45,742 nucleotides of DNA. Source: a virus. The stretch is taken from IMG/VR virus record IMGVR_UViG_3300009085_001438. One strand, written 5' to 3'. The notes under the pieces are model-generated. The model was not told the DNA's origin. It searched no databases and saw only the letters and a program-made list of their open reading frames with translations. Shown here piece after piece: positions 3,879 to 35,317 of this stretch. The translations under genes were made by a program, and so were the position numbers. How positions within the stretch are numbered: position 1 is the stretch's first letter; every line of letters begins with the position of its first letter.

Positions 3879-3895
3879 TATGTGAGCATAAAAAG

Positions 3896-3968: not shown

Positions 3969-3979
3969 TAACCAATTCT

Positions 3980-4015: not shown

Positions 4016-4016
4016 T

Positions 4017-6203: not shown

Positions 6204-6222
6204 AGTTACATCCCCATTTCAA

Positions 6223-6483: not shown

Positions 6484-6511
6484 TTTTTCTCCAATACTTT
6501 TAACAAGTTAA

Positions 6512-6778: not shown

Positions 6779-6779
6779 C

Positions 6780-8193: not shown

Positions 8194-8411
8194 TATTTCT
8201 CCGCCAAACAATCTCCATTGGTGCAATAAACATCCCAAGCATACTTACATACTTTATTATCTTTACAGATATAGCATGTGTAGTTTTCTTTAGCTAACGG
8301 AGGGTCATCAGACACTAGCTCCTCTTCAGCCACTTGTGCTTGAGCTTCATACACCTTTTTGAGGTTTTCTAAGTAATCTTTTGTGACCTTAATCTGTATT
8401 CGTTTTTGCAT
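8193..8411 (-). CDS. Cys-rich small hypothetical protein
   Basis: 72 aa containing CYICKDNKVCKYAWDVYCTNGDC. Confidence 0.4.
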   Translation of the reverse strand: MQKRIQIKVTKDYLENLKKVYEAQAQVAEEELVSDDPPLAKENYTCYICKDNKVCKYAWDVYCTNGDCLAEK

Positions 8412-8841
8412 TTATATTTTCACATACCGGAGAATCCGTCGGATTTGCTGTCTGCCATTGCCAAACAATAATTGCTACAGCTTGTCTTGAAACTAACACA
8501 CCGCCAGCTGTTTCTACTAGTTTAGCTATCTTTGCAACCTCTTCAAGCAAACTTGGAGCAATATCAGCTTGGGAAGCTACTCCTAGTACATTCTTAAGCG
8601 CATTTAAAGTCAACCAGTTCATGTGATTTCCCTCCTTAAGCAGCCCTTTTAAATCTTCCCAAATATGAGAATTTAAAATAAACCGCATTGCTTGTCTGTA
8701 GTTATACCCAAGACGTTGTGGGTGAGTTTTATTTGTTTTAAACATCCATCCATAAGGATACTTTCGACAGAAGTACACCTCACATGGATACTCTAATTTC
8801 TTTGAAAGCTCTGTTTGGAGTTGAATTGATAACTGAGACAT
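8389..8841 (-). CDS. hypothetical protein
   Basis: 150-aa ORF. Confidence 0.45.
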   Translation of the reverse strand: MSQLSIQLQTELSKKLEYPCEVYFCRKYPYGWMFKTNKTHPQRLGYNYRQAMRFILNSHIWEDLKGLLKEGNHMNWLTLNALKNVLGVASQADIAPSLLEEVAKIAKLVETAGGVLVSRQAVAIIVWQWQTANPTDSPVCENINAKTNTD

Positions 8842-8844
8842 GAG

Positions 8845-9045
8845 CTACACCTTAGCTACCCATTCAACGTTTTCCCAACGTTCTTCAGGCCCAAATTCAT
8901 CAGGGTACCAAACGCCCCAGCGTTGCTTAATTGTTGCTCTTTCTAACCAACGAAATTCATCGTTAAGAATCATAGGTAGTAGTAAAAATTTAGTAATAAT
9001 GCGAGTATCACCTAGCTTTGGTCTAGCTTTAAGTTGATATTTCAT
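8845..9045 (-). CDS. hypothetical protein
   Basis: 66-aa ORF. Confidence 0.4.
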   Translation of the reverse strand: MKYQLKARPKLGDTRIITKFLLLPMILNDEFRWLERATIKQRWGVWYPDEFGPEERWENVEWVAKV

Positions 9046-12974: not shown

Positions 12975-13562
12975 TTATTCTCCTTTCAAGAGTCTGAATT
13001 GAGCTAATGACTCTAATAGCTCTAATTGACTTAAACACTCTTCCATAGTGGAGCCCACTGACACCACTCCATGAAAAGGGATTACAATTAGCGGTTGCTC
13101 TTTGAGTGCATGCAGGAACGCCATACTCCTTATAGTTTCTCCATAATCTTCTAGAATTTGAATCTTAGGCAATAACCATTTCGTTTCATGATTGTATGGG
13201 ACCAAATTAGCACTATTTTTGCTGTTCTCACTAAAATACATGGTAGTGTAAGGAGGATGTGCATGAATAACAACACACGGCGTGCCCCACTTCTTATGAA
13301 TTTCACAGTGCATGGGAGTCTCTGCAGAGGGTTTGAAATCACTTCTATATGCAGGAATCGTTCCATCTAACGTGACCTTACCAATATCTTCTACAACTTT
13401 TAAAAAGCCTAAATGACTCCCGGATCGTGTAATGTAGATTTGTGGTTCCGCATTTCCTTGTATGTGTAGAGGCACTGAACAAGATATATTGCCTCCTGTA
13501 GAGAGTACTAAGCGTCTCTCATATAGCGTCTTTCCCAGTTCTACTAAATTGCCACCCATCAT
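12975..13562 (-). CDS. class II aldolase/adducin-family protein (FucA / ribulose-5-P 4-epimerase / MTRu-1-P dehydratase fold)
   Basis: STGGNISCSV..., VVIHAHPPYTT (the HxH metal site) and VIPFHGVVSVGSTMEE align with FucA GTAGNVSVR, VVHNHAVHCT and LLQHHGLIACEVNLE. Confidence 0.7.
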   Translation of the reverse strand: MMGGNLVELGKTLYERRLVLSTGGNISCSVPLHIQGNAEPQIYITRSGSHLGFLKVVEDIGKVTLDGTIPAYRSDFKPSAETPMHCEIHKKWGTPCVVIHAHPPYTTMYFSENSKNSANLVPYNHETKWLLPKIQILEDYGETIRSMAFLHALKEQPLIVIPFHGVVSVGSTMEECLSQLELLESLAQFRLLKGE

Positions 13563-14442: not shown

Positions 14443-15012
14443 TTATCCCTTAAGGCTTTCTGTAATATGTTTATCCACAGCTCCTTCATTGGTATTGTAT
14501 CCACCTGCGTATATCCCAGCCTTTTCACTGGCACTAATCACAAATTGACCTGCACAAGCTCCCACTTCAAGAATCACTGGACCGTTCAAAACATAAATAA
14601 GCCCGTTCACATGACCTTTAAACCCGGAATCATACAAACCACTCGTTACTAAAACACCGTTACGATTCAAACTGGACCTAGTTTGTACCCATCCTGCAAA
14701 CCCTTCAGGCATTTCCACATAAAGATCCGTTGTGTAATCATATACTCCAAGCTTTAAGTACCAACTTCTGTAATCCGCTGTTATCTCCTTTTTATCTGGA
14801 GTCGTGCCTATTACAAGTCTTCTTACATGAGGCTGTACTAGCTTACGTGGCCTATGCTTCTTATCCTTTGCAGTAATAATACACGTAGAATTTGAATCTA
14901 ACTCATACAACGCATGTACCGGAATATCTATGCCATTTGGTTGAATTTGTGCATCTTTGATATTACCTCTCAACCAACCTTCAACTATTGCTTTTTTTGG
15001 ATTTATAAACAT
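14443..15012 (-). CDS. dcd: dCTP deaminase / dUTPase-superfamily protein
   Basis: MFINPKKAIVEGWLRGNIKDAQIQPNGIDIPV aligns with E. coli Dcd [35 protein letters not shown]. Downstream TRSSLNRNGVLV matches GRSSLARLGLMV. Start placed at the internal Met matching the Dcd N-terminus. Confidence 0.7.
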   Translation of the reverse strand: MFINPKKAIVEGWLRGNIKDAQIQPNGIDIPVHALYELDSNSTCIITAKDKKHRPRKLVQPHVRRLVIGTTPDKKEITADYRSWYLKLGVYDYTTDLYVEMPEGFAGWVQTRSSLNRNGVLVTSGLYDSGFKGHVNGLIYVLNGPVILEVGACAGQFVISASEKAGIYAGGYNTNEGAVDKHITESLKG

Positions 15013-15523
15013 GTGACTTACCCTGCTTTCTTCGTGCTTTACGTAAAAAATACAAATCTCCAATTACTTTTATTTCCATAAAAACAAAAACAAATAAAAC
15101 ACTAAATGTTGAATGCACAGCTAGCTGTAAGAGAAAAAATGCAATTACAAGAGAATGCCAAAACACTGCAGTACTTAATACCATTTGGAGTAAGAGTTTG
15201 CACCTGTCTGCCAATTGCAAGCATACATTCCTTTACTAAAAAGCTTGTCTAATTCCTGTAATAAATTTTATATAACAACAATTGACCTCTGTAACAGTGC
15301 CGGCTTCTCTCTCGATAATCCCGCAAAGCTCATCCTCCCTGACTGTTCTAGTCCATTCAATCCTTTAACGTGTAACATAATTACTTCTCCTGCTTACTTA
15401 TTATTGTGCTGATTTTCACACGCTTCACAGGTGCACTCTACGCATAGCACTGCACCACACTTTTCACACACACATACGTATCAGCTTCTTCCACTTCTTC
15501 TAAGCAATTACTGCAAATTTCCA

Positions 15524-16165
15524 TCAGATTCCTTTCTCGGATATAGCATTTTTAACGTTTTCGTAAAACTCTAACTTTGCATGATCTTCCTTGTCCAAAA
15601 ATGCCCCGGAGAGCTTAGTGGTTTTCATTACGCTAGGGTGTTCCACACCTCGCAATTTAACACACAAATGCTGAGCTGAAATATGCACTGCTACCCCGAG
15701 ATTGCCCTCACACACTTTATCAATGTATTGATGAATTTGCATTGTGAGTTCTTCTTGAATTTGAGGTCTTCTTGCAAACCACTCCACTATTCTATTTATT
15801 TTACTTAACCCAATCACTTTACTATCTGGCGTAGGTATGTAAGCTACATACGCGTGGCCAAAAAAACTCACATGGTGGTGTGCACAAAAACTATTCACTG
15901 TAATATTACCTTGAAACACCATACCATCATAGTGATTCATATTATCAAAAGCTGTAATAACAGGAGGTGTTGTGTAGCATCCTTGGGCGATTTCATTAAG
16001 CCACATTTTTGCAACCCGCTTAGGTGTGTCTTTCATGTTTGGATCCGCTTGCCAGTTAAACCCAAGAGCATCTAAAAACTTTGCGTATGCAGCTTCAGCT
16101 AAACGCAACCTTGTTTTAATTGCTTCTTGTGAAAGTATTTCGTTGCTATTACAAAACTCTAACAC
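15524..16165 (-). CDS. folE: GTP cyclohydrolase I
   Basis: HHVSFFGHAYVAYIP...SKVIGLSKINRIVEWFARRPQIQEEL...HLCVKLRG matches the FolE core (CEHHLV..G.A.VAYIP...GLSKINRIV..FA.RPQVQE). Confidence 0.9.
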   Translation of the reverse strand: MLEFCNSNEILSQEAIKTRLRLAEAAYAKFLDALGFNWQADPNMKDTPKRVAKMWLNEIAQGCYTTPPVITAFDNMNHYDGMVFQGNITVNSFCAHHHVSFFGHAYVAYIPTPDSKVIGLSKINRIVEWFARRPQIQEELTMQIHQYIDKVCEGNLGVAVHISAQHLCVKLRGVEHPSVMKTTKLSGAFLDKEDHAKLEFYENVKNAISEKGI

Positions 16166-16176
16166 TCTTCTTCCTC

Positions 16177-17079
16177 CTACTGTCTAAGTAATTTTGCACA
16201 GTGTATCTGGTAGGCACATAAGTTGTGGTCCAACAGTTCAAAACTAGTTGCACGCACAGGGCAAATATCAATCCCACCTCGTCTCGTGTAAACAGCTGCT
16301 ACCATTAAATCCGAAGGTTTGCAATAGGTAAACAATCTTTGATAAATCATTTCTACAACTTCTTCATGAAAATGGTTTTCATTCCTGAATGAAACAATGT
16401 ACTGCAGCAAAGACAACTCAGATAATTTGTGGTAGGAACGCATGTATACAAATAACGTGCCCCAATCAGGCTGATGAGTAATTTTACAGTTGCTCCGAAG
16501 TACATTAGTTGTGCATGCAAGGATGTTTGGTGCATCTTGTTCCACGCTTTGTAATAGTGCGGGATCCTCTTTGAAAGATGTAAACTTGATGCCACCTACT
16601 CCTTCTAATTGTTCCAGCACTGTCCATTCACGTTGAAAAACAGGTGCGTTGCCTGCTTCTTCAAAATATTCCACAGCTACTCGCACCTCTAAAAGTTCAC
16701 TCAGATCCCTTCGAATACAAGCAAGCACGCCTCGCAATGCCTCATCTTTTGTAGGCCCCATCTGTGTCATGTTGAATGAATTTAAGTACAGCTTTAAGCT
16801 CTTACTCTCTACTATATACTGACTATAAGATGGGTAGACGATTTTAGCCACTCCGCTTACAGGTAAATTATTATTGGTAAGAAAACTCACTTCGTAAGCA
16901 TTCCACACATCGTACCCAATAAATGGAAGATCAGTATCCTCTATACCGTACTGCAATCTATTTTCCGAACGCGGAACGCGAACTAGAACGCTAGGATCAT
17001 ATTTTACAGGTGCGTCAACGCGTTTACCTAAAATGTGCTCTTCAGCTTTGGTGGCTGTTTTTGGTGTTGGTTTTAACAT
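16177..17079 (-). CDS. queF: NADPH-dependent 7-cyano-7-deazaguanine (preQ0) reductase, type II (two-domain)
   Basis: ESKSLKLYLNSFN (the QueF motif), SNCKITHQPDWGT (catalytic Cys / QPDW), YIVSFRNENHFHE and YTRRGGIDICP align end to end with E. coli YqcD/QueF. Confidence 0.9.
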   Translation of the reverse strand: MLKPTPKTATKAEEHILGKRVDAPVKYDPSVLVRVPRSENRLQYGIEDTDLPFIGYDVWNAYEVSFLTNNNLPVSGVAKIVYPSYSQYIVESKSLKLYLNSFNMTQMGPTKDEALRGVLACIRRDLSELLEVRVAVEYFEEAGNAPVFQREWTVLEQLEGVGGIKFTSFKEDPALLQSVEQDAPNILACTTNVLRSNCKITHQPDWGTLFVYMRSYHKLSELSLLQYIVSFRNENHFHEEVVEMIYQRLFTYCKPSDLMVAAVYTRRGGIDICPVRATSFELLDHNLCAYQIHCAKLLRQ

Positions 17080-17090
17080 AATTAATTCCT

Positions 17091-17906
17091 TTAAAAAGCT
17101 TTATAGTTTACGTATTCTCCATAATTTACAAACTCTCTGAACCGTTGTATATTGTGCATGATACGCTCTACATCTTGATTCCCTTTTGGTTCATAATTTA
17201 ACAATTCAGGTATTTTAATTGATTTCTTTTCCCATAAGCCGAAATCGTCATATTCAATTCCACAAATTCCGTGCACGATAGGTGAAGAGGTGTCTAAAGA
17301 TCTAATCCACTTATACGGAGCATAAAAACTGAACTCTCTTGGATTAGAAGCTCCTAGCAAATGATGAGGTTTTTCGGTATTTATAATGCCATCTTTAGCT
17401 AACTTACCTAATAAACCAATTCGCCCTAACATCCAGGAAATGCATTTACTAGGATGAGGGGTACTTTTCTCGTAATAACTATAATCAAAGCTAATGCCGA
17501 TCTTATCTACATGTGCATCCATGTATTTATAACATTTTACAATTTCTTCATAAGTTTTTCCTTGGACTACTCCAATCTTTTTTCCAGGTAAATTGTATTT
17601 AGCTAACCACATTTGACAGTTTTCTATAGTGCGATTACAGTCTTCAAGCACATCCGGGATAATATAGTAAGTAGGTTGAAGCTTCTCTATCCAAGAAGCA
17701 TAATTATCTCCAGAGTAAGCTTGCCCGAGCTCTTGAACGCTATTATCTAAAATCACCTCTCGCCCAAGTTTAAGACATTTACTAAAAAAGTCTCGGTACT
17801 TTGCACACTCTGAAAAGAGGTGCACAAGCGCGTAATCATAATCATTAAAATACAAGCTTGCCTCTAAGAAACTTAAAGGAGCTTCGTGGGATATCTTAAT
17901 AGACAT
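17091..17906 (-). CDS. dpdA: TGT-family (tRNA-guanine transglycosylase-like) protein lacking the zinc subdomain; DpdA-like DNA 7-deazaguanine transglycosylase candidate
   Basis: VILDNSVQELG resembles TGT LTDSGGFQ. GVVQGKTYEE resembles GIVQGGVFEN. EKPHHLLGASNP resembles DKPRYLMGVGKP. IRSLDTSSPIV resembles IDMFDCVLPT. No CxCxxC...H zinc site. Sits immediately downstream of folE-queF. Confidence 0.55.
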   Translation of the reverse strand: MSIKISHEAPLSFLEASLYFNDYDYALVHLFSECAKYRDFFSKCLKLGREVILDNSVQELGQAYSGDNYASWIEKLQPTYYIIPDVLEDCNRTIENCQMWLAKYNLPGKKIGVVQGKTYEEIVKCYKYMDAHVDKIGISFDYSYYEKSTPHPSKCISWMLGRIGLLGKLAKDGIINTEKPHHLLGASNPREFSFYAPYKWIRSLDTSSPIVHGICGIEYDDFGLWEKKSIKIPELLNYEPKGNQDVERIMHNIQRFREFVNYGEYVNYKAF

Positions 17907-18315: not shown

Positions 18316-19140
18316 CTAAGAAAGTGTAATGTGTATAATATCTTGTATTTCGGGGTTGCCATATGTTGCATGGCCTGTTCGAACAACTAAATTTGGAAGT
18401 GCATAATAGGTGCCAGCACTATGCGTGTGCCCGCACAGCACGGTAAGGTTTTTAGCAGGAAAGGCTTTCATTACTTCTTTTAACGTGTCTCCAACAGCTT
18501 TACAACTAAAATGAGGCAAATAATAGTCTGAAGAAGCGTGGCCCTGATGCCAAGCAGCTTCTGCAAACGGAGGCACATGCATTACCGCAAAAACATGATC
18601 ATACTCCTTAAATGCTTCTAACAAAGCAGTGCGAAACAACGCTGCTGATTCATCTCCTAGAGCATTTAACTTTCTAAGACGCTCTTCTTTAGTAAGATAC
18701 TGCAACTCTTTAATTTGATAGTAATCATTAAGGGTTACGCTTGAATTTTTATAGTCTCCATAGCGGCCATCCGCCCAGGAGTCGTACCCGATCAAGCAAA
18801 CCCTTGTAGATAGAGGCACTAGACCTTTAAATGGCAAATAAAATAACCAGGATTCCTGGGGGATTTCTACAACCGCTTCTCGCGTTTTGCTTATTGAACT
18901 ACCATAACAATCATGGTTACCTAGCACAAAATAGATTGGAGTACGTACTATATTAGCTAACAAGTTTAAATCATGACACAAACGCGTGCTTGTAGATATG
19001 TCTCCACTAATAATAATGCCAGCTAGTAATAAATTATCTAACCGTGCACCGAGTAGTTTAATTTCATCTATGGTGCAGTGATCTAAATGTATATCAGTTA
19101 ACCAAGCTAATTTCACGTTTACTCTTCCTATAAATTTCAA
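18316..19140 (-). CDS. calcineurin-like metallophosphoesterase
   Basis: Motif series LTDIHLD (DxH), GDISTS (GD), GNHD, HVPPF and GHTHS. Confidence 0.8.
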
Positions 19141-20087
19141 CCAAGTAAAAAAGCTGTATATGTTTTTCGCAGTCCCTCGCCAAGTGTTGTAGTATGGTGC
19201 CAGCCTAGCTTATGTATTTTAGATACATCTAATTCTTTTTTAGGTGTGCCATCCGGTTTAGATGTGTCATAAATTATTTTACCAGAATAACCAACCACAT
19301 CTCTAATCTTCTCTGCAAGATCCTTAATAGAAATTGACTCTCCTGTGCCTACATTGATTGGCTCGGAGGAATTATAATTCTCTAACAAGAAAACACACGC
19401 ATCAGCTAGATCATCTACATACAAAAATTCTCGTAAAGCTTTACCTGTTCCCCACACTGCAACTTCAGGCTTTCGCTTTATTTTAGCTTCATGGAATTTT
19501 CTTATTAATGCAGGTAATACATGTGCATTTTCTAAGTGGTAGTTATCCCTTGGCCCATAGAGATTTGTAGGCATAGCACAAATAAAGTTTGTACTGTATT
19601 GCTTGTTGTAAGCTTGGCACATCTTGATACCGGCAATTTTAGCTACCGCATATGCTTCATTAGTCTCTTCTAGGGGACCTGTAAGTAGGTATTCCTCTTT
19701 AATTGGCTGCGGGCAATCTCGAGGGTAAATGCAGGAACTGCCAAGAAAGAGGAGTTTTTTTACTCCATAAACATTAGCAGCATTAATTACATTAGTTTGA
19801 ATCATTAAGTTATGATAGATGAAGTCTGCCGGGTAAGTGCTGTTCGCATAAATGCCTCCTACTTTAGCTGCCGCTAAAATAATATACTCCGGCTTTTCAT
19901 AATCTATCACTTTATGTACAACAGCTTGGTCAGCTAGATCAAACTCAATGTGCGGTTTTATAACAACATCTCGATACCCGTTCAGTGCTAATTTCCGCAC
20001 AATAGCTGAACCCACTAACCCAGTGTGCCCCATCACAAAAATTTTACTGCACTTATCCATGTTACTCTTGCTCACCTTCAAGTGCAT
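19137..20087 (-). CDS. fcl: GDP-L-fucose synthase (GDP-4-keto-6-deoxy-D-mannose 3,5-epimerase/4-reductase)
   Basis: [47 protein letters not shown] and [30 protein letters not shown] are almost collinear with E. coli Fcl ([29 protein letters not shown]). Confidence 0.9.
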
Positions 20088-23557: not shown

Positions 23558-24178
23558 CTAATAAATAGCTCCGCTTTTGTACACAGAAACTATTTCATCT
23601 CTAGTTAAAAGTGCACAAGCTTTAACACCTACTTTTTCAATATTAGCCATCCCATCATTTTCTTGCCGATCCACTACAACAATAGCATGCTCTACAATTA
23701 ATCCAAATTCACGAGCTTTTTCAATGGCTGTAATTGTAGAAGCACCAGTTGTAACTACATCATCTACGATTACTGCATGCTCGCCTGGAACAACCGGGCC
23801 TTCTATACTTTTTTTAGTCCCATGATCCTTTTGGGCTTTACGCACAATAAAAGCTTTAACCACCTTTCCCGGACCGCCTGTGCGTAAAAGCTCCATCTGA
23901 TAATAAAAAGCTACAGCAGTCGCAATAGGATCAGCACCCATTGTCAACCCGCCAACGGCTTCAAAATGCACATCTTTCAAGATTTCCGTTGTCATGGTAG
24001 CAATCAAATGCATGCCGGATGGGTGCAGTGTGGCTTTACGACAATCAATATAATAGTTGCTTAACCCGCCTGAAGAAAGAGTGAATGGAGTTTCTTCATT
24101 GTACAGAAAAGCCTTTGTAGATATTAATAATTGAATTAAGGCATCTTTTTGAGATTGTAATGTAGACAATTGCGACAT
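23558..24178 (-). CDS. pyrE: orotate phosphoribosyltransferase
   Basis: FTLSSGGLSNYYIDCRKA, KAQKDHGTKKSIEG and AVIVDDVVTTGASTITAIEKAREFGLIVEHAIVVVDRQE align with E. coli PyrE (FTLKSGRKSPYFFN; KEAKDHGEGGNLVG; VMLVDDVITAGTAI...LISLDRQE). Confidence 0.8.
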   Translation of the reverse strand: MSQLSTLQSQKDALIQLLISTKAFLYNEETPFTLSSGGLSNYYIDCRKATLHPSGMHLIATMTTEILKDVHFEAVGGLTMGADPIATAVAFYYQMELLRTGGPGKVVKAFIVRKAQKDHGTKKSIEGPVVPGEHAVIVDDVVTTGASTITAIEKAREFGLIVEHAIVVVDRQENDGMANIEKVGVKACALLTRDEIVSVYKSGAIY

Positions 24179-24703: not shown

Positions 24704-25804
24704 CTAATTTGTTGTTAAAAATGCTTGAAATAACCTTTCTTTTGCACTATCAGTCATGTTATAGATAAAATCCCCTAATTTCGCCCCTTTTCGAAGAGCA
24801 AACATGATGTGCTGTACTGGACCTTTCACAGCTAAAGCAAACTCTTTCTGATCCTCAATGCAGTTCGTGCATGTGAATAATCTACCAACCTCTTTTACAA
24901 TAGCTGCGTAAGCAGTTACGTAAGGTTGAAAATACTCCCGATCTTCAGGGAAAGAACTCAGGTACTCCTCATGGTCTTGAGAGCATACTAACGATACAAT
25001 TCTCTTAACTGACAATACTCCATTACATCTTAAGTGTGCAACAGCTAAATAAGCTGGATTTTTAACTTTTATCCGCCATTGCTTCTCGGGCCAATAGCAC
25101 ACATAACCCTCATCCAAAGGAGGTAATTCTCTTAAGGATTCTACAAGCTGAGGTATGGTGTCAAAGCGAAAATAAGGCGGTATGGAAACATTGAACTGTT
25201 TAGCGTAATACTCAAGATCCGCTAAGGCTATATCTTTGCCTGTTACACGATTCCGGGCATTTAACAAATAAATATCAGGGTTAGAATATCTCGTAACAAT
25301 TCGCGTCTCAGGAGAAACTAATTCAAATGAAAAAGTTAGATCTTCTGGTAAAACCATGCGCTGAAAAAAATCTTGGGTAGTTGCACCCAGCACACCTTCA
25401 AAAATAGATCTAAAGGAGTTACCTAAAGCAGAGTTCCCCTCTGCGAATGCCATACTACGCGTACTGCATTCCCATTGGTTAGCATGGTATACATTAAGCA
25501 AAGATCCGTCTATCTTTTTAAAGCAAAATGCTTGTGTGATGGCAAATTCTTCGTGTTTTGGATCTTCCGTGTAATTAAAAAACCTATCAAAAGGCCGGCA
25601 CAAAACTCTATAATCAGGTAGGGATAGAATTAAACCTCGGCACTCTCTAACAATCGGATCATGCTTTGGGGATTCAATTTGATCATAGTTTAACACAGCT
25701 CGATCATCATAATACCGCACTTCAATGTGCAAAGTGTCTTCTAAAGATTTCAAAGGGTGTGTTTTTAGGTACTTTAAGATTTCCATGTGAGTCGGGTTCT
25801 CCAA
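24704..25804 (-). CDS. RNA ligase, T4 Rnl1 family
   Basis: ECRGLIL, RPFDRFFNY and FKKIDGSLLNVY (nucleotidyltransferase motif I KxDG) align with T4 Rnl1 ECRGIMF, RPMEKFFNL and LTKEDGSLVSTY. Similar length (366 aa). Confidence 0.75.
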   Translation of the reverse strand: MENPTHMEILKYLKTHPLKSLEDTLHIEVRYYDDRAVLNYDQIESPKHDPIVRECRGLILSLPDYRVLCRPFDRFFNYTEDPKHEEFAITQAFCFKKIDGSLLNVYHANQWECSTRSMAFAEGNSALGNSFRSIFEGVLGATTQDFFQRMVLPEDLTFSFELVSPETRIVTRYSNPDIYLLNARNRVTGKDIALADLEYYAKQFNVSIPPYFRFDTIPQLVESLRELPPLDEGYVCYWPEKQWRIKVKNPAYLAVAHLRCNGVLSVKRIVSLVCSQDHEEYLSSFPEDREYFQPYVTAYAAIVKEVGRLFTCTNCIEDQKEFALAVKGPVQHIMFALRKGAKLGDFIYNMTDSAKERLFQAFLTTN

Positions 25805-26229
25805 CCTAATTCAAGTTCAATACACCGCATACCAGGCTTAGTATCTAAGTAAGCTTCCAACACCTTAACGTTTGTAGGGCACACATTAGTTAGAGCTAAT
25901 AACTTGCGATTATTATAGAGGATAGCTACCTCTTGAGCAACTGCATTGGGCTGTCTTTTTGCTTTATATTCCCAATCTTGAAGTGCATTCACTACTTGCC
26001 AATCCACATCTAGAGTAAAATGCAGATTGCCGGAACCCCGGCTATTAACTAAAAAAAGATTATCCGACTCACACTGAATCACACCTTCTGCATATGCATG
26101 CTGAACAAGATATTTACGATCTACTTTTTCCAAGCCTAATTCACGTAAGAATTGAGCTTCCTGATCCGGTGTTCTTGGAATTTCTAAAGAAACTCTAGTA
26201 TTAGGTATTTTTAGCATCAACACAAACAT
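25774..26229 (-). CDS. hypothetical protein
   Basis: 151 aa downstream of promoter copy J. Its end overlaps the RNA ligase start. Confidence 0.45.
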   Translation of the reverse strand: MFVLMLKIPNTRVSLEIPRTPDQEAQFLRELGLEKVDRKYLVQHAYAEGVIQCESDNLFLVNSRGSGNLHFTLDVDWQVVNALQDWEYKAKRQPNAVAQEVAILYNNRKLLALTNVCPTNVKVLEAYLDTKPGMRCIELELGWRTRLTWKS

Positions 26230-26254
26230 CTTTTTCTCCGAACTTAACTAGCTT

Positions 26255-26295
26255 GTGTCCTAATTATACACGTATCAGCTGGAAAAAACAAGGCT
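26255..26295 (-). promoter_or_regulatory. conserved promoter element copy J (TTGTTT-N17-TATAAT)
   Basis: rc of 26286..26291 is TTGTTT, 17-nt spacer, rc of 26263..26268 is TATAAT, followed by TAGGACACAAG (as TAAGACATAAT in other copies). Confidence 0.5.
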
Positions 26296-26296
26296 T

Positions 26297-26710
26297 TTAC
26301 TGCTTACAAAACTGCGATATGTTAGCTGTGCGGGTTTGAACCTTTTCTGCTAAACGTGCTAGAAATACTTGCAAAAACTCGAAGTTGGTCACCGATACAA
26401 ACATTACATTGTTTACATGACTTTTACTATAGTAGCACATGCTGTATTCAATAAACTCTACCGCTGACATGCATAAGCTAATAGGTAAGACTAGCGTGTT
26501 CAATGCATACAGTGTAAGAGGTTGCCCATTTATCTCAATTACAGTTATCATCTGCATTCGTTGGGTAGCTAAGTTTATTCCCTGCTCTTCATTAAATGCT
26601 TCTTTCTTAGAACATCTACACCAACCAAACCTCAAACACCCATCGTCATCTATATCTGCCACGAATAACCCGACAGGTTTTTGTTTTTCCCGTATCCATT
26701 GAATCACCAT
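26297..26710 (-). CDS. hypothetical protein
   Basis: 137-aa ORF. Confidence 0.45.
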   Translation of the reverse strand: MVIQWIREKQKPVGLFVADIDDDGCLRFGWCRCSKKEAFNEEQGINLATQRMQMITVIEINGQPLTLYALNTLVLPISLCMSAVEFIEYSMCYYSKSHVNNVMFVSVTNFEFLQVFLARLAEKVQTRTANISQFCKQ

Positions 26711-27399
26711 AATTCCTGCTCCAAAACTGCTGAGATGTAATTGTAAAGAAGTTCCGGCAGAGCCTCTCTAGATTGCTCTACGTGCATGTGCTCACTTAAG
26801 ATAAGTGCTTTTTCTTTGCACCACTCCAAGCAATTAGCTACTATAAGATCTGCTCTTGAAGCTTTTCTACTCTCTCTTGCAATCTGTAAGAGCTCTTCTT
26901 CAGATTTGCCCACTTCTAATTTGAATTTCACAAGAAAGCCTCTGTAACCCCACTCACCCCGGATTTTATCTATAAGTTTCGGTGTTTGTTCAAGTTCAAG
27001 AAATAACTTAGAGTGTTTTGAGGAGATTTTAGTAGCAGCATCCACTTGCTGCAAAGACACTCCATCGTCTTGGAACGTGTGTGTTGCTACCACTCTATAG
27101 TCACTTACTGCAGCTGAGTGAACAACAGCATCATAATTTCCTGCCTGGATTTGAGTCTGCATTAAAGCAGCTAATTCATCAAATGTTCTGTAAGGGAACA
27201 CCACCTTTGGATGGTGCTTATAATTATAATGTGTTGCTTTAGCTAATTCCGGGTTAGATGTTATCAAAGTAACATTAGCGTTTTGGCTTGCAAAATACTC
27301 AGCAATCATTGACCCCGTGGTGCCTTTAAAAATGTTTGTAATAGCACGTACTTTATCAATAGGTGTTTGTGTAGCTCCAGCTGTTATTAGAACACGCAT
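26704..27399 (-). CDS. coaB: phosphopantothenate-cysteine ligase (CoaB domain, stand-alone)
   Basis: MRVLITAGATQTPIDKVRAITNIFKGTTGSMIA...ANVTLITS aligns with the E. coli Dfp CoaB half [32 protein letters not shown]...ANVTLVSG. Start set at MRVLITAG, preceded by AAAAGGAA. Confidence 0.85.
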   Translation of the reverse strand: MRVLITAGATQTPIDKVRAITNIFKGTTGSMIAEYFASQNANVTLITSNPELAKATHYNYKHHPKVVFPYRTFDELAALMQTQIQAGNYDAVVHSAAVSDYRVVATHTFQDDGVSLQQVDAATKISSKHSKLFLELEQTPKLIDKIRGEWGYRGFLVKFKLEVGKSEEELLQIARESRKASRADLIVANCLEWCKEKALILSEHMHVEQSREALPELLYNYISAVLEQELW

Positions 27400-27412
27400 A
27401 AAATTTCCTTTT

Positions 27413-27748
27413 TCATATTTGTAGCATGCCAGAAGGCTGCTGAATAATAGGTTTTGGATACCAGTCAAACACATCTAATAATGTTTTTTGCAGAATACAG
27501 AGTGGGCGCATCTCCCGGCTCTCTACAATCACTTTGGGGTAATCAAACACTAAATTACCAACTCGGTCCGATATGGTGATATTGCGCAAATAGAGTTGCG
27601 GTTGATCCTGAACAACACAACTTAACATAAACACCGCAGTTGCACATGCAAGAACAGCACTCCAATACATACTCCGACGATCTTTATAGATACCGTATCC
27701 AAAATACACTAAACCTGCTAGCAAGTACAGCAATGCAAGGAGATCCAT
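27413..27748 (-). CDS. small membrane protein
   Basis: MDLLALLYLLAGLVYFGYGIY...AVLACATAVFMLSCVV gives two TM helices. Confidence 0.4.
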   Translation of the reverse strand: MDLLALLYLLAGLVYFGYGIYKDRRSMYWSAVLACATAVFMLSCVVQDQPQLYLRNITISDRVGNLVFDYPKVIVESREMRPLCILQKTLLDVFDWYPKPIIQQPSGMLQI

Positions 27749-27841
27749 TTAATTTATTCCTTATAGATGATCAAGTTGCTAATCACTAAGCTAACACTAG
27801 ATAAGAGCGGGGGGTGGCTCTCATCTAGCGTGATTGTAATG

Positions 27842-27997
27842 CTACAAAGTAACGTTAGCGTCTGCAGCTGGAGTATTGCTATCCAGTAATTCCACCTGAG
27901 CCGGAGCTTCAACTTGAGTTTCAGACCGTCCGCAACCAAAAGTTCCGATTGTTAAAACAAAAACAACTAAAAGCAACATGCAAGTAAATTTCTTCAT
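27842..27997 (-). CDS. small putative lipoprotein (51 aa), below the ORF-track cutoff
   Basis: CAGGAGAAAATAT-ATG start. Reads MKKFTCMLLLVVFVLTIGTFGC|GRSETQ..., a signal peptide ending at Cys. Confidence 0.4.
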   Translation of the reverse strand: MKKFTCMLLLVVFVLTIGTFGCGRSETQVEAPAQVELLDSNTPAADANVTL

Positions 27998-28070
27998 ATA
28001 TTTTCTCCTGAAAAGTTAAATTACATAAAAAATTAAAAGGAACCCAAACTAACAAGAGACGCTGTGCACA

Positions 28071-28610
28071 TCACCTCTTTTTGTTTAGCTGTTCTTGAAT
28101 GAAAGCTATAACGTCTTTGGTGGAAGGTAATTTACCTATACCTACCGCACCACACACTAAATGGCCCGTACCGGGCTCCATAATTGTCCACCCAAAGCTT
28201 TTTAATGTATTTACATTTCTCTGTGTAATTGGATTTAACCACATGTTAGTATTCATAGCTGGAAAGAGAAACAACTTATGCACTGAATACTCTACTGCTA
28301 CAATTGTGGATGTTGGTAAATCGTCTGCAATACCTGCAGCTATTTTTGCTATAATGTTAGCTGTAGCTGGTGCAACTATGATTATCTTATTATGCTGTGC
28401 TGCATGCACATGCACTGGTGTATTTTTATCGTCCACGTACAGTGTATCACAAATATTTGCTAAAGAAGCTTCCGTGACAAAATTCAAAGCCTCTTTAGTA
28501 GCCATAGCATTCACTTCACATAATAAGGCTTTTTGTAAGCCGGAAATTATATCCAAACTCTTGTATGCAGCTATTCCTCCGGACACTACTACCAATATAG
28601 GTGAACTCAT
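28071..28610 (-). CDS. coaC: phosphopantothenoylcysteine decarboxylase (CoaC flavoprotein, stand-alone)
   Basis: MSSPILVVVSGGIAAYKSLDI...VAPATANIIAKIAAGIADDL...FPAMNTNMW aligns with the Dfp N-terminal domain KKIVLGVSGGIAAYK...LAPATADLIARVAAGMANDL...LPAMNQQMY. Start placed at the internal Met, preceded by AGGAGG, which gives a 4-nt overlap with the upstream gene. Confidence 0.85.
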   Translation of the reverse strand: MSSPILVVVSGGIAAYKSLDIISGLQKALLCEVNAMATKEALNFVTEASLANICDTLYVDDKNTPVHVHAAQHNKIIIVAPATANIIAKIAAGIADDLPTSTIVAVEYSVHKLFLFPAMNTNMWLNPITQRNVNTLKSFGWTIMEPGTGHLVCGAVGIGKLPSTKDVIAFIQEQLNKKR

Positions 28611-29050
28611 TTTGTGCCTCCTAGCAACATGTCTTGGAGGAAAGGGTCTGTAGCGTGATTTGCAAGACATTCAGCAGCTACACTCTTGTTTACCGCAAGG
28701 GCTGCTCTTGCAATTCTATCAGTTACATTTGCACCTAAGCTTAATAGTTCTTCAATAATTTCAGCTGTAATGCGCCGCCGCTCACCTAAAATAAAACAAT
28801 CTGTTTTCCACTTCCGGAACTCACCAAGTTTGTGGGGGTTCTCATACACTTGAGATTCCGGAGTAAGTGTTACGGACCTAATCCAAGGCCCATACTCTAA
28901 AAATGCCAATATATCTTCACGTGCAAAATACATTCCACCAGGTGCACAATCTCCGGAAGGATTAAATGGAAGTGCATCTTTATTGAAACCTGTGCGGTAT
29001 TGCATACCTCCATGTTTTTCATCTTCCTTTAAAATCTTGTAGTTTTGCAT
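28607..29050 (-). CDS. hypothetical protein
   Basis: 147-aa ORF. Confidence 0.45.
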   Translation of the reverse strand: MQNYKILKEDEKHGGMQYRTGFNKDALPFNPSGDCAPGGMYFAREDILAFLEYGPWIRSVTLTPESQVYENPHKLGEFRKWKTDCFILGERRRITAEIIEELLSLGANVTDRIARAALAVNKSVAAECLANHATDPFLQDMLLGGTK

Positions 29051-29059
29051 AGCACCCCT

Positions 29060-29497
29060 CTAAAAAAGGTCCATCACCTGCTGAGTGGTAAGTTTCAGCA
29101 CTGGGAAACTCCAACCTCTCGACGGACTCTCATTCCAGCCCACAGCACAATGATTTTTCAACAAACACCAACTATAAACATGTTTATGAGTCCCTGGCCA
29201 AGGTTTCCACTGCTCATCTTGCTGTAACGAGTACTCTTTCAACACGTTTGTGTGAAGTAGCTTCTCCACTTTTTTAGGTACTTCTGCACCTTCAGGGAGC
29301 CAATCACGTAGTTCAGCGGTGCGTGTTAGTGCTAAGGACACCTCTTCCACTTCCTCATTAAATTCCACATGTAAAGTGGTTGGATCAGGGTTTACAAAAT
29401 CCAGCTTTTGGCATGTGGAGGTGTACACTCCTCTACCTCTGTGCTGATGAATTATAACGGTACCGCCAAGCAAGCGTTTTTTATCTTGAATTTGCAT
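29060..29497 (-). CDS. hypothetical protein
   Basis: 145-aa ORF. Confidence 0.45.
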   Translation of the reverse strand: MQIQDKKRLLGGTVIIHQHRGRGVYTSTCQKLDFVNPDPTTLHVEFNEEVEEVSLALTRTAELRDWLPEGAEVPKKVEKLLHTNVLKEYSLQQDEQWKPWPGTHKHVYSWCLLKNHCAVGWNESPSRGWSFPVLKLTTQQVMDLF

Positions 29498-29507
29498 GGT
29501 TTTCTCC

Positions 29508-29714
29508 TTATCTTTTAATTACTTCCGGCTCTATACCAAAATGTTCTCTCACGTACTCTACTCCTTTACCTTTTGGAGCATCAAATCTAATACTTAGTGG
29601 AGTTGAATCCACTTCTTTTGGAAAAGGAGAGGGTAAGTCAGTCAAAATTGATACATAATCACCACGTCCTGGTGCGATAAGAACTGTAATTTTTGTAATG
29701 TTCAGTTTGTCCAT
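29508..29714 (-). CDS. hypothetical protein
   Basis: 68-aa ORF downstream of promoter copy D. Confidence 0.4.
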   Translation of the reverse strand: MDKLNITKITVLIAPGRGDYVSILTDLPSPFPKEVDSTPLSIRFDAPKGKGVEYVREHFGIEPEVIKR

Positions 29715-29744
29715 GTCTCTCTCTCCTTCTTTTGTAGGTGTATG

Positions 29745-29785
29745 TTTAAATTACACATACAAAAGCTGGGAAGATCCAGTTTTCA
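29745..29785 (-). promoter_or_regulatory. conserved promoter element copy D (degenerate: CTGGAT-N18-TGTAAT)
   Basis: rc of 29774..29779 is CTGGAT and rc of 29750..29755 is TGTAAT. Confidence 0.35.
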
Positions 29786-29791
29786 TGTGGT

Positions 29792-30373
29792 TTATTTTAC
29801 TAAAGGTTTATCTTGCTCTAAACGCTCGATTTTTTCCGTAAACTCTGGCCACTGTGAAAGTATACCCTTTGCCCATTGGTCCACTTGAAATTCCTTAGCT
29901 AAATTGAAAAAGAACTTCCAGCATTGCTCAGTTTCTATTCGGATCCTAGCTGCGAAGTTCTTTTGAGCATTTGTTTGAGCTTTTCGCCATAAGATTTCGG
30001 AGACAAATTGATGGGAGTTAACCGGCGGTATTTTAACACCAAGACTTGCACTATTGAGATTAGCTCTGTAGAGATTGGTTCGGTAGAGAACAGCTTGATA
30101 GAGGTTGGCTTGATAGAGGTTGGCTTGGTAAAGGTCAGCGCCTGCAAGATTAGCTTCTTGCAAATTTGCCATCTCAAGACTTACTCCTCTAAGAGCAGCA
30201 TTTTGCAAATCAGCTCCTTGCAAATCAGCTCCTTGCAAGTTAGCTTGATAAAAATTAGCTCCTTGCAAGTTAGCTTGATAAAAATTAGCTCCTTGCAAGT
30301 TAACTTGACAAAAATCAAGATTATCAGTTTCAAACAAAACAATATTTGGATCAAATCTGTTAACTATTTTCAT
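29792..30373 (-). CDS. pentapeptide-repeat protein (Qnr/MfpA-like)
   Basis: About 20 consecutive A(N/D)LxxA(N/D)L pentapeptides (ANLQGANFYQANLQGANFYQANLQGADLQGADLQNAALRG...ANLYQANLYQAVLYRTNLYRANL). Confidence 0.85.
   Translation of the reverse strand: MKIVNRFDPNIVLFETDNLDFCQVNLQGANFYQANLQGANFYQANLQGADLQGADLQNAALRGVSLEMANLQEANLAGADLYQANLYQANLYQAVLYRTNLYRANLNSASLGVKIPPVNSHQFVSEILWRKAQTNAQKNFAARIRIETEQCWKFFFNLAKEFQVDQWAKGILSQWPEFTEKIERLEQDKPLVK
30040..30335. repeat. tandem 15-nt (pentapeptide-encoding) DNA repeats inside the pentapeptide-repeat gene
   Basis: Reiterated ttgcaag-ttagcttgataaaaattagctcc units are visible in the sequence. They are coding, not CRISPR. Confidence 0.7.
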
Positions 30374-30564
30374 TTAACACCTCCTTCTTGAAGCGCTGTG
30401 CAGATGATTTGTTCAAATTCTGATTTCGAATAGCTTTTTACCAGCTCTTGCATTAACTTATCAATGTTCACACTTGTTAACGTAACATTCAAGCTACTTG
30501 CTTGAGTAGCAGCTGCTACGGAACTACATTCAATATCTAAATGTCCTAAGAATCTCATACTCAC
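30370..30564 (-). CDS. hypothetical protein
   Basis: 64-aa ORF. Confidence 0.35.
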   Translation of the reverse strand: MSMRFLGHLDIECSSVAAATQASSLNVTLTSVNIDKLMQELVKSYSKSEFEQIICTALQEGGVK

Positions 30565-32515: not shown

Positions 32516-34396
32516 TTAATGGGTTGTTAGAAACGTTTCTAATATTTTACAATACTCCGGGTATAATATTTCATCTATGTTTGCAATTGATATAGCTACA
32601 TTATGCTGGGTGCAAATTTCTACAAACCGCTGGGGAGAAATTTTAGTATGGTGTAGTAACTCTTGAATAACAGCTTTAAACAGGTCCACATGTTTTAGTA
32701 AAATTCCATATGCTTCAGACGTAGCTGTGCATACAATAGCTTCTATAGTGTTGTTTGTAAGCTGCATATCTGTGTTAAATTTAGAAGCTCCCTCTAAAGA
32801 AGACGCAACCGTTTTACTTACCCTATTAAAAAATCCATACTCCCGTTCTAACCGAGCTACAAGTTTTGTAGCTTGATCAATATCAGCTACACACCCTGCA
32901 GTCCGTTTTTCTTCTCCGAATACTAATCGCTCAGCCTGGGTGCCGGCCATCAGCACTGCAAGTTTTTTCAGCTCCCACTCTTTACACGTGCAACGCATGT
33001 GCTGCCCTATGAACCCTTCAGCATCACCGCAGGTGTTACTAACAATTTGCGTCGGAGCTCTATTAAATAAAACTGCATACACTGTAGCATGCCCCGCTTC
33101 GTGCACGCTGATGCTAGCTTGTTTATCCACCTCTAAACTGCGTTTGTGCCTCAGAGCGTCTAAGGACCCAATATATTTAACTCGCTCTACACATTCCCCA
33201 ATCTGAGCTTCAATATGCTGACCCTCATATTTAATAGAAACTCGAGTAATGTTTGATGTAAAAGCTTTTAACAGAAAGTGCGGGAGATTTGCTTCTAACA
33301 CTTCAGTAATTGTAGAGAACACTGGACGTGTGCCTTGTGCTGGGAACACTCCATTCCTATATATTAACTCTATCACACTTGCATCCACATCTATCTTAAT
33401 ACCAAACTGGTCAGATAAACGCGAAACAATTTCCTCAATTTTTCGTTTTATAATTACTTGAAATGCTTTTTTATTTAATGAGGGATACGTAATGTGTATG
33501 TTACCTAAACGAGCTATCTGTTCTGGTTTAAACCGTCTGCGGAGTGCTTTTTTGACATCTACTAATGTAACTTGCTGAGCTGCTGCCCAGTACGCGTCAG
33601 CATCTGTATCTGCTTCTCCAACATCTTGAGCAATCTCATAAGCTTCATCTAAATTACCAGATACAAAAATGAGCAATTTAGAGTAATCCTCGTGATTGTA
33701 GACTGTCTTACTCTCCATTTGCTGAGCGATTAACTCTAACAGCGCAGCATCATCCCATGCAGCTATCTCCTCCAAACTAGCTTCAATGCGGAGCATTTTC
33801 TTCAAGTATCTTAATTGGTAGTAAGATGGGGATGTATCCTCCTCACCCTTACTGTGTTTTTTAATTTTCTTTGCTTTCTTGTTCCATAGAATTTGAAATA
33901 AATATTCCATAGAAGCTCTGGGGAGTTTACCATCACTAAGAAGAGTCCAGATGTCTTGAAAAGTATCACAATCGGTTATTTCGTGCCCTTCTTCATCTAC
34001 AGTGCGAAATCGCTGCAACTCATCTAACAAAAGAACTCCAGGTTTGCCCGGTTCAATGTTATCATTTTCCCTTAGGAGACCTCCAATACTACTTTGGTAT
34101 GAAAAGGAATCCCGATTAGCTGGGCCTGCATTGGTTAACTCAATTTCACAAAAACGGTCTGCAAAATCTAGATGCTTCACCAACTTACGCACTAGATCTG
34201 TTTTGCCGACTCCGGTAGGCCCCCACAAATTCACAATAGTAGGTCTGAGTAACAGTTCCGGCATAATAAACCAAGTACGCACATTATGAAGGATTTTATC
34301 AATAACACTATCAATTCCTACAAAATCTTCTTTTAAACGCACGCCAGCCTCTTGCAACACGGCATTTTTTGCTCTGAATAACTGTTGATCAAACAT
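32516..34396 (-). CDS. soluble AAA+ ATPase fused to an FtsH-type (M41) zinc metalloprotease domain
   Basis: Walker A NLWGPTGVGKTDLVRKL and Walker B GVLLLDELQRF. C-terminal region carries VHEAGHATVYAVLF (HEAGH, the FtsH/M41 zinc motif). No TM segment at the N-terminus. Confidence 0.7.
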   Translation of the reverse strand: MFDQQLFRAKNAVLQEAGVRLKEDFVGIDSVIDKILHNVRTWFIMPELLLRPTIVNLWGPTGVGKTDLVRKLVKHLDFADRFCEIELTNAGPANRDSFSYQSSIGGLLRENDNIEPGKPGVLLLDELQRFRTVDEEGHEITDCDTFQDIWTLLSDGKLPRASMEYLFQILWNKKAKKIKKHSKGEEDTSPSYYQLRYLKKMLRIEASLEEIAAWDDAALLELIAQQMESKTVYNHEDYSKLLIFVSGNLDEAYEIAQDVGEADTDADAYWAAAQQVTLVDVKKALRRRFKPEQIARLGNIHITYPSLNKKAFQVIIKRKIEEIVSRLSDQFGIKIDVDASVIELIYRNGVFPAQGTRPVFSTITEVLEANLPHFLLKAFTSNITRVSIKYEGQHIEAQIGECVERVKYIGSLDALRHKRSLEVDKQASISVHEAGHATVYAVLFNRAPTQIVSNTCGDAEGFIGQHMRCTCKEWELKKLAVLMAGTQAERLVFGEEKRTAGCVADIDQATKLVARLEREYGFFNRVSKTVASSLEGASKFNTDMQLTNNTIEAIVCTATSEAYGILLKHVDLFKAVIQELLHHTKISPQRFVEICTQHNVAISIANIDEILYPEYCKILETFLTTH

Positions 34397-35008
34397 TTAC
34401 TCACCTCGAATATGGGCAATTGTAGACCATTTGAGTCGCGCTATTTGACGAAGTTGTTCGTCAGTGCATTTCTTGAGAAATGACACTGTTTTTGGATCCG
34501 ATGGATATCCAGATCCAAAATCTCCATAAGTTTGACGCAAACCGCTGATTACATGATCTCGTAATACTTTTGCAACAATAGAAGCAGCAGAAACCACTAC
34601 GTAATTCTGATCTGCTTTATTTTCTGCACAGATCTTAATCGATGGCTCTACTAAGCTCTGGATTGTGTCATTATACGTAATCAATCCCTTGCCGCTTGCT
34701 GGAGCATCAATATATGCAATATCCGGTACTAAAGCTCTCACAATTTTTACATCAGCTTGAAGAGTTAACTCATTTAAGTTACCTGCATCAATCTCTTCAA
34801 CACCGATGTAAAAAACACAAAATGCTTTTACGTGTCTTAGTATGTGTAAAAACAAAACATTACGCTTATGCGGTGAAAGCAGTTTTGAGTCCTTAACACC
34901 TAATTCTCGTAAAAGTACCTCCTTATTGCTATCAATGCAAACTCCTGCAACGACCATTGGACCGATTACACAACCGCGCCCGGCTTCATCCACACCTGCA
35001 ATATTCAT
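34397..35008 (-). CDS. rnhB: ribonuclease HII
   Basis: MNIAGVDEAGRGCVIGPMVVAGV matches the RNase HII N-terminal catalytic motif (GxDEAGRGp..GP.V.A.V). 203 aa. Confidence 0.85.
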   Translation of the reverse strand: MNIAGVDEAGRGCVIGPMVVAGVCIDSNKEVLLRELGVKDSKLLSPHKRNVLFLHILRHVKAFCVFYIGVEEIDAGNLNELTLQADVKIVRALVPDIAYIDAPASGKGLITYNDTIQSLVEPSIKICAENKADQNYVVVSAASIVAKVLRDHVISGLRQTYGDFGSGYPSDPKTVSFLKKCTDEQLRQIARLKWSTIAHIRGE

Positions 35009-35317
35009 CTAAGCACTCGGCACGCTTTTACCTTGAAGCACGCACTCACTTTGCACATTGCGCTTCAAATTTTCTACAACTTTTTCTTGTAAATTAGGCG
35101 TGTTCTGCGTGCACTTCGTGCAAAGCCCATAAACAATGCACCGCTGCTTACCTGCGGCAGTGCCAAAAGAAGAATCTGATGTTAACAAAATACCCTTCGT
35201 GTTCGTCTCTTCACCACATAGTACACACGGCATAACAGGCGTGTTTTTTACTGCATTTATAAGGTCCTGTAAAGCTTCTTTAGAAGTTTTCGCTGATGAT
35301 TGGACTCTTTTATTCAT
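35009..35317 (-). CDS. zinc-ribbon hypothetical protein
   Basis: 102 aa with PCVLCGEE...CTKCTQ. Confidence 0.4.
   Translation of the reverse strand: MNKRVQSSAKTSKEALQDLINAVKNTPVMPCVLCGEETNTKGILLTSDSSFGTAAGKQRCIVYGLCTKCTQNTPNLQEKVVENLKRNVQSECVLQGKSVPSA

Follow-up and report, generated by a model that had tools for sequence, protein, structure and literature searches.

In E. coli and most other bacteria, the phosphopantothenoylcysteine synthetase (PPCS, CoaB) and the phosphopantothenoylcysteine decarboxylase (CoaC) of coenzyme A (CoA) biosynthesis are joined in one bifunctional protein, CoaBC (Dfp), and split CoaB and CoaC proteins are found in Streptococcus and Enterococcus. COASY, the eukaryotic CoA synthase, combines phosphopantetheine adenylyltransferase (PPAT, CoaD) and dephospho-CoA kinase (DPCK, CoaE) in a single polypeptide. 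Here, we discuss a stretch of viral DNA of 45,742 nucleotides (IMG/VR record IMGVR_UViG_3300009085_001438; "the window", which is a whole contig), in which proteins for all four of these steps are predicted from three genes on the minus strand, namely a stand-alone coaB (26704-27399), a stand-alone coaC (28071-28610) and a coaD-coaE fusion (6780-7925).

The window genes share the chemistry and folds of the E. coli-type Dfp, and their order, with coaC upstream of coaB, mirrors the N- to C-terminal order of the Dfp domains. Unlike Dfp, they are two genes, with two small open reading frames (ORFs) between them. The split proteins of Streptococcus and Enterococcus (TIGR02114 for CoaB, TIGR02113 for CoaC) provide the best solved CoaB match (Protein Data Bank (PDB) entry 2gk4), but the window proteins score below the equivalog cut-offs of these families. 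COASY has the same domain order as the window fusion. However, the PPAT half of the latter is of the bacterial CoaD type (TIGR01510), which makes the fusion an event independent of COASY.

Patescibacteria (CPR) and DPANN archaea resemble the window in having separate coaB and coaC genes and a CoaB with an N-I-F-K-G sequence ("NIFKG" type; 52.5% identity to the Patescibacteria CoaB of locus L005). Their CoaD-CoaE fusions, of about 380 amino acids (aa), also have the domain order of the window protein, at 32-40% identity. In contrast to the window, coaB precedes coaC in the Patescibacteria loci, without inserts and in a cellular context, and the CoaC proteins are only 31% identical.

Among phages, the same four activities are represented in the 735-kb huge phage LR756501/LR756503 of the Mahaphage clade. 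In LR756501, as in the window, coaC lies upstream of coaB, but the two genes are immediately adjacent (L009, 7950-9727), and coaD and coaE overlap as two separate genes (L125, 3950-5013) instead of forming a fusion. The phage shares with the window a vault-like protein (46% identity) and CoaC (41% identity). In LR756501, CoaC is fused to an M23-peptidase-like domain that the window CoaC lacks, and CoaB is of a different type ("NIS[ST]G"), with 32% identity to the NIFKG protein of the window. The GenBank record of LR756501 is unannotated, and the main text of the paper that describes the phage does not mention CoA (Al-Shayeb et al. 2020, PMC7162821). Late cofactor steps are also phage-borne in the form of viral auxiliary metabolic genes (AMGs), such as the NAD+ salvage genes of large phages and the coaD and coaE genes that are listed among abundant virome AMGs (PMC11097641). 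These reports list single genes, unlike the four-step set of the window.

Identity of the encoded proteins

The product of the gene at 26704-27399 (231 aa) matches the Pfam DFP family (PF04127) with 101 bits against a cut-off of 22 (E = 9.5e-29). The match covers residues 26-216 of the full ORF, which extends from 26704 to 27474. The start of the gene is likely the ATG at 27399, which is backed by the JGI gene call and by an AGGA motif 8 nt on its 5' side; the longer version of the ORF overlaps the upstream ORF. All eight PDB sequence matches are PPCS, both for the single protein and for the family profile, and the profile matches 2gk4, the stand-alone protein of S. pneumoniae, with an E-value of 3.4e-38. 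An AlphaFold (AF2) model built from 27 sequences (pLDDT 90.1, pTM 0.87) was compared with the PDB by Foldseek. The top 50 matches are all PPCS (TM score about 0.65-0.78), and the structures matched are those of the S. pneumoniae, yeast (Cab2), M. smegmatis, E. coli and human enzymes.

The residues R18, N22, D100 (in AAVSDY) and K124 (in KISS) are invariant within the CoaB family alignment. The active site of E. coli CoaB, which comprises Arg206, Asn210, the AAVADY motif and Lys289, aligns directly with R18, N22 and the AAVSDY motif with D100 of the window protein, and K124 falls within about 3 residues of K289 in an indel-rich stretch. Judging from sequence and modelled fold, the protein is a member of the PPCS family with predicted PPCS activity (EC 6.3.2.5), and belongs to a distinct subfamily rather than being an equivalog of the streptococcal enzyme.

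The coaC gene (28071-28610) has an AGGAGG motif in front of its start and encodes a stand-alone flavoprotein of 179 aa, which belongs to a phage-type lineage of the homo-oligomeric flavin-containing cysteine decarboxylase (HFCD) family. The protein matches Pfam Flavoprotein (PF02441) with 91.7 bits against a cut-off of 22.7 (E = 4.9e-26), the next-best NCBIfam families other than CoaC all stay below 31 bits, and the closest solved structures are those of the CoaC part of CoaBC from M. smegmatis and of HAL3a from A. thaliana. H67, N120 (in PAMNTNMW) and C153 correspond in the alignment to three HAL3a residues, the catalytic His, the motif Asn of PAMNxxMW and the clamp Cys (His90, Asn142 and Cys175 in the literature numbering of AtHAL3a), and are invariant across 13 relatives in the family alignment. 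These data support the assignment to the stand-alone phosphopantothenoylcysteine decarboxylases, with the corresponding predicted activity (EC 4.1.1.36). The clamp Cys distinguishes the phosphopantothenoylcysteine decarboxylases (HAL3a, Dfp) from the peptide decarboxylases EpiD and MrsD, which lack it. An EpiD- or MrsD-type peptide decarboxylase is unlikely in view of the conserved Cys and the best matches to CoaBC and HAL3a.

The coaD-coaE fusion (6780-7925, 381 aa) starts with a GTG codon that follows an AAGGAGG motif. Residues 1-160 (7446-7925) form the CoaD domain (EC 2.7.7.3), and residues 161-381 together with the stop codon (6780-7445) the CoaE domain (EC 2.7.1.24). Both halves pass the NCBIfam equivalog cut-offs, with 135.6 bits against 103.3 for TIGR01510 (coaD) and 78.9 bits against 65.55 for TIGR00152 (coaE), and the C-terminal half also matches Pfam CoaE (1.5e-19). 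At E<=1e-6, the fusion matches 38 distinct PDB sequences, all of which are PPAT or DPCK. The PPAT half matches 34 PPAT entries, with E-values down to 1.6e-30, and the matches of the DPCK half are DPCK, including the DPCK domain of mouse CoA synthase (2f6r).

The PPAT motifs SGDPIHQGH and SST are present in the fusion, and its DPCK half retains the GVTGEIGVGKS P-loop and the IDLD motif. In an alignment of 18 fusions, the SGDPIxxGH motif, R92 (in RGLR) and S129-S130 of SS(T) are invariant in the PPAT half, as are G166, T168, G169 and K175 of the P-loop and D200 (in IDxD) in the DPCK half. The fusion is 32-40% identical to fusions in Patescibacteria, DPANN archaea, Fibrobacterota, Bacteroidota, Planctomycetota and other metagenome-assembled genomes (MAGs). 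From identity to such scattered MAG fusions, the donor of the gene cannot be assigned.

The original prediction, made from the sequence alone, had placed separate coaB and coaC genes at 26704-28610 and the coaD-coaE fusion at 6780-7925, and had concluded that the four steps from 4'-phosphopantothenate to CoA are encoded. The ORFs are found at these positions on the minus strand, and the four assignments hold by profile, by motif and, for CoaB, by fold. Two misreadings had been envisaged. The 26704 and 28071 proteins could have belonged to unrelated flavodoxin-like families, which their CoaB- and CoaC-type matches contradict. The N-terminal half of the fusion could have been a nicotinamide mononucleotide adenylyltransferase (NMNAT); this is rejected because this half passes TIGR01510 and because no NMNAT is among the PDB matches. 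It had also been stated that only pantothenate kinase is missing. Our Pfam scan, which covered every minus-strand ORF of at least 45 aa (about 87 ORFs), found no pantothenate kinase, PanB, PanC, PanD or PanE, acyl carrier protein (ACP) or phosphopantetheinyl transferase family. The statement therefore stands for the window but does not extend to the whole phage, since the window is part of a genome, and the absence of pantothenate kinase from the phage cannot be concluded from it.

Mosaic origin of coaB and coaC

The coaB and coaC genes of the window appear to differ in ancestry. The window CoaC is 54% identical to the CoaC of L002, 47% to that of L007 and, as mentioned, less similar to the proteins of LR756501 and the Patescibacteria. 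The CoaB proteins that are paired with this CoaC lineage are usually of the NIS[ST]G type, which in our tree forms a clade composed solely of viral-contig sequences. The window CoaB is just 32-34% identical to these proteins, and its closest named relatives are Patescibacteria proteins, with 48-55% identity. A neighbour-joining tree without bootstrapping places it in the midst of Patescibacteria-labelled sequences, alongside the CoaB of one other phage-like contig, L008. Two distinct CoaB clades are thus paired with one CoaC lineage, which suggests that this phage lineage exchanged its coaB and kept its coaC. Such a pattern fits the retention of an activity rather than of a particular gene, and a replacement of coaB while coaC was kept would imply that the function was retained or selected.

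A replacement of coaB would also explain the genes between coaC and coaB. In relatives, this place is usually taken by the M23-peptidase-like domain of about 180 aa, which has an MLH motif and a conserved HxxxD. No remnant of this domain turned up between coaC and coaB of the window when all six frames were searched with a relaxed hidden Markov model (HMM); two unrelated small ORFs (JGI gene calls, both on the minus strand) are present there instead. The ORF at 27413-27748 (111 aa) has two N-terminal hydrophobic segments in its hydropathy profile. The ORF at 27842-27997 (51 aa) is preceded by AGGAG and has a hydrophobic, signal-like N-terminus, followed by TFGC, which is a loose lipobox. Neither ORF has an above-threshold Pfam match or a PHROG match. 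The original description of the two as a small membrane protein and a small lipoprotein is therefore reasonable for the former, and a loose call for the latter. In two phage-like contigs (L007, 7451-9951; L008, 5419-8054), a PP2C phosphatase gene and a gene for a large kinase-like protein of about 560 aa lie beside or between coaC and coaB; they have no counterpart in the window.

A scan of the region 25500-30500 found promoter signals only at chance level, and the few terminator-like sites in this region are mostly within genes.

Recurrence in other phages

CoaC is encoded on at least 29 IMG/VR viral contigs, many of them 100-435 kb in length, and the CoaD-CoaE fusion on at least 6, of 74-312 kb. 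These counts come from alignment-based, pattern-limited scans and are lower bounds. In HMM scans, nearly all of the CoaC loci have a coaB no more than 10 kb away, and one contig (L013) has coaB, coaC and coaDE contiguously. Apart from the CoA genes, these viral contigs share almost no gene with the window. Single-protein scans of IMG/VR with CoaB or the fusion retrieved no relatives.

Viral encoding of most of the CoA pathway had been called unusual, and the data point both ways. On the one hand, no PHROG family matches CoaB or CoaC, and none of the GenBank phage records matches the fusion protein over 80% of its length; most of the nominal phage matches in these records are short and unannotated and resemble host DNA. 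On the other hand, the four activities are represented in LR756501 and the genes occur on dozens of IMG/VR contigs, coaD and coaE are known AMGs, and "Pantothenate and CoA biosynthesis" is an AMG category in several surveys. Among GenBank phages, an annotated coaD on its own occurs in Microcystis phage MaAM05 and in Caulobacter phages whose genomes measure about 300 kb or more. Our literature searches found no paper that describes a multi-step CoA pathway in phages or tests its function. The same gene set recurs in very large phages, and the window is an instance of a recurring, little-discussed pattern rather than of a new type of system. The recurrence of the set across otherwise unrelated large phages suggests that its function is selected.

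Phage nature of the window

The evidence for assigning the window, as a fragment, to a large tailed-phage genome is strong but indirect, and the phage is probably a huge phage of a Mahaphage-related lineage. The approximately 87 genes all lie on one strand, cover 91% of the sequence and mostly lack a Pfam family, and the GC content is uniform (37-41%). A von Willebrand factor A (vWA) protein of 728 aa (4017-6203) belongs to phrog_2426 (E 1.5e-127) and has full-length homologues in 494 phage records. Klebsiella and Salmonella phages are the most numerous among these, and AR9/PBS1 and Rhizobium phages are included. Elsewhere in the window there are matches to phrog_562 and phrog_19058. The latter is the family of a DpdA-like protein (17091-17906), whose identity with the "DNA guanine transglycosylase" of Flavobacterium phage immuto is 54.5%. 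A T4-type RNA ligase is also encoded. The window yielded neither ribosomal nor other housekeeping genes.

The vault-like protein (37947-40343, 798 aa) has the shoulder and repeat domains of the major vault protein, and its full-length identity with proteins of the huge phages LR756500 (462 kb) and LR756501 is 45-46%. It is also 36-57% identical to proteins of 16 metagenome contigs, and in these loci neither CoA genes nor any other gene shared with the window were found. In LR756500, coaB lies directly upstream of the vault-like gene.

Contigs from two other datasets are nearly identical to parts of the window. L001 (JGI 3300027972, 4.7 kb) is 99.9% identical to positions 25067-29725, and L003 (SRR5468435, 6.0 kb) is 100% identical to positions 3019-9002. 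These close copies differ from the window by one substitution in coaC. It follows that the same phage is present in several samples. A metagenome scan with the left-end protein, aimed at extending the contig, gave no match.

With respect to the host, strong Shine-Dalgarno use fits Bacteroidota poorly. In the window, Shine-Dalgarno-like cores (GGAG, GAGG, AGGA) are found 4-16 nt on the 5' side of 48 of the 87 first starts (55%), compared with 14% of all ATGs. This frequency weakens the assignment of a Bacteroidota host by analogy with the Mahaphages, for which Bacteroidetes hosts have been predicted (PMC7162821).

Other genes of the window

In the direction of transcription, two tandem paralogues of 86 and 88 aa (6223-6483 and 6512-6778; 43% identical, without a family) follow the coaD-coaE fusion directly and precede the vWA gene. 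A pentapeptide-repeat protein of 193 aa (29792-30373; Pfam Pentapeptide 2.5e-37) is encoded about 1.2 kb upstream of coaC. The minus-strand region 14443-17906 comprises, next to the DpdA-like gene, genes for a dCTP-deaminase-like protein (14443-15063), the GTP cyclohydrolase I FolE (15524-16165) and a QueF-like nitrile reductase (16177-17079), and is a probable 7-deazaguanine DNA-modification cluster; QueC, QueD and QueE were not recognised. In the region 32516-36471, genes related to nucleic acids and proteostasis are clustered: they encode an FtsH-like AAA+/M41 peptidase protein (32516-34396), RNase HII (34397-35008) and, at 35317-36471, an RdgC-like protein. Further genes of metabolic appearance, for class II aldolase/adducin-domain, metallophosphoesterase, NAD-dependent sugar epimerase/dehydratase and phosphoribosyltransferase-domain proteins, lie at 12975-13562, 18316-20087 and 23558-24178. 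Genes for tRNA-Thr (TGT, 3895-3968), tRNA-Asn (GTT, 42139-42212) and tRNA-Glu (TTC, 42761-42836) are interspersed with the protein genes and share their coding (minus) strand.

Role of the CoA genes

In our judgement, the window probably carries an auxiliary metabolic module that would lead from 4'-phosphopantothenate to CoA during infection. CoaB would activate 4'-phosphopantothenate with a nucleotide (CTP in the bacterial enzymes) and then ligate it to cysteine. CoaC, a predicted flavin mononucleotide (FMN) enzyme, would decarboxylate the cysteine moiety to give 4'-phosphopantetheine. The PPAT half of the fusion would adenylylate this product to dephospho-CoA, and the DPCK half would phosphorylate the 3'-OH to complete CoA. 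Expressed during infection, the module would keep up or raise the supply of CoA and 4'-phosphopantetheine. This supply would not require the host enzymes that act after pantothenate kinase, with host phosphopantothenate or salvaged phosphopantetheine as the input.

Several observations weigh against such a module. The window CoaB is below the NCBIfam equivalog cut-offs (125.1 against 217.2 for TIGR02114 coaB_strep, and 131.5 against 265 for NF005231), and so is CoaC (124.1 against 261.4 for TIGR02113 coaC_strep), which makes them members of the enzyme families that stand outside these curated subfamilies. Moreover, the window CoaB family has N-I-F-K-G where characterised enzymes carry N-x-S-[ST]-G, and we know of no NIFKG family member that has been characterised. 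The CoaC of many relatives forms a fusion with, or lies next to, the M23-like domain (L009, 7950-9059; L002, 4909-5460; L016-L025, L029, L041 and L042), which to our knowledge has no place in CoA synthesis. Within the window, there is no pantothenate kinase, so that the gene set leans on the host or on a part of the genome outside the contig, and there is no CoA- or ACP-consuming gene that would account for the heavy CoA or acyl-carrier demand put forward as a possible reason in the original prediction. Finally, the window has no capsid, portal or terminase gene, and its assignment to a phage relies on homology and genome style.

Three other explanations have been considered, each of which is less likely than an infection-time CoA module. 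The proteins could be real enzymes that serve another purpose than a bulk supply of CoA. PPAT might make dephospho-CoA or CoA-RNA caps, or the CoaB/CoaC pair might use a different carboxylate or a peptide, as do the HFCD enzymes EpiD and MrsD, which act on peptidyl-cysteine. Post-transcriptional capping of RNA with CoA by PPAT is on record (PMC10761072), and an RNA ligase is encoded in the window. The low equivalog scores of CoaB and CoaC would also be compatible with another substrate, and the association of CoaC with an M23-like domain of conserved HxxxD in related phages hints at a peptide-linked activity. However, the window itself has no M23-like sequence, Cys153 is kept in every CoaC relative, and the best matches of CoaC are CoaBC and HAL3a, not EpiD. 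Above all, the four consecutive steps occur together in the window and in LR756501, and contiguously in L013. We therefore regard another purpose as improbable. It is somewhat less probable still that the genes are recent neutral passengers without a role in infection. Large phages are known to accumulate host-derived genes, the window CoaB apparently comes from a different source than CoaC, and the genes between coaC and coaB are unrelated among relatives. Against neutral passengers speak the intact ORFs with their conserved catalytic residues, the Shine-Dalgarno-like motifs before the starts, and the recurrence of the set on dozens of otherwise unrelated viral contigs. The apparent replacement of coaB points in the same direction, as it implies that the function was kept.

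The contig could also be cellular, for example from Patescibacteria or another organism with a small genome, or belong to a mobile element other than a phage, and the CoA genes would then be housekeeping genes. The Patescibacteria affinity of the window CoaB, in sequence identity as well as in the tree, the separate coaB and coaC genes of these bacteria and the common occurrence of the CoaD-CoaE fusion in Patescibacteria and DPANN MAGs all fit this explanation. So do the lack of structural phage genes and the failure of peptide-pattern scans of IMG/VR to retrieve the window. Yet the Patescibacteria loci have a cellular appearance and carry coaB before coaC, whereas the window has its genes on one strand, mostly without a Pfam family, and includes phage-specific families (phrog_2426, phrog_562, phrog_19058) but no housekeeping genes. 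The closest relatives of its vault-like protein and of its CoaC come from huge phages or phage-like contigs. A cellular or non-phage origin is thus the least credible of the three explanations.

A broader idea goes beyond the module itself, and we offer it as a speculation with only a slim chance of being correct. Large phages of several lineages might repeatedly assemble and keep a self-contained module from phosphopantothenate to CoA because CoA or 4'-phosphopantetheine is contested during infection. To this end they would even take in a foreign coaB, which in the window is of a Patescibacteria-like type, and in relatives join CoaC to an M23-like domain. The host would shut down or deplete CoA, or else the phage would need dephospho-CoA or CoA as an RNA cap or protein modifier. 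If this were true, CoA would be a second cofactor battleground beside NAD+.

The chemistry of the four steps is textbook knowledge, and the gene set already sits, unremarked, in published huge-phage genomes. Further points of interest are the apparent replacement of coaB and the association of CoaC with the M23-like domain in relatives. If the enzymes are active, the phage could rebuild CoA from phosphopantothenate without the CoaBC, CoaD and CoaE of its host, and the takeover of host metabolism by phages would reach a central acyl-carrier cofactor. With four predicted activities in three genes, the window offers a testable module for the question of why large phages with long infections may need a cofactor supply of their own.

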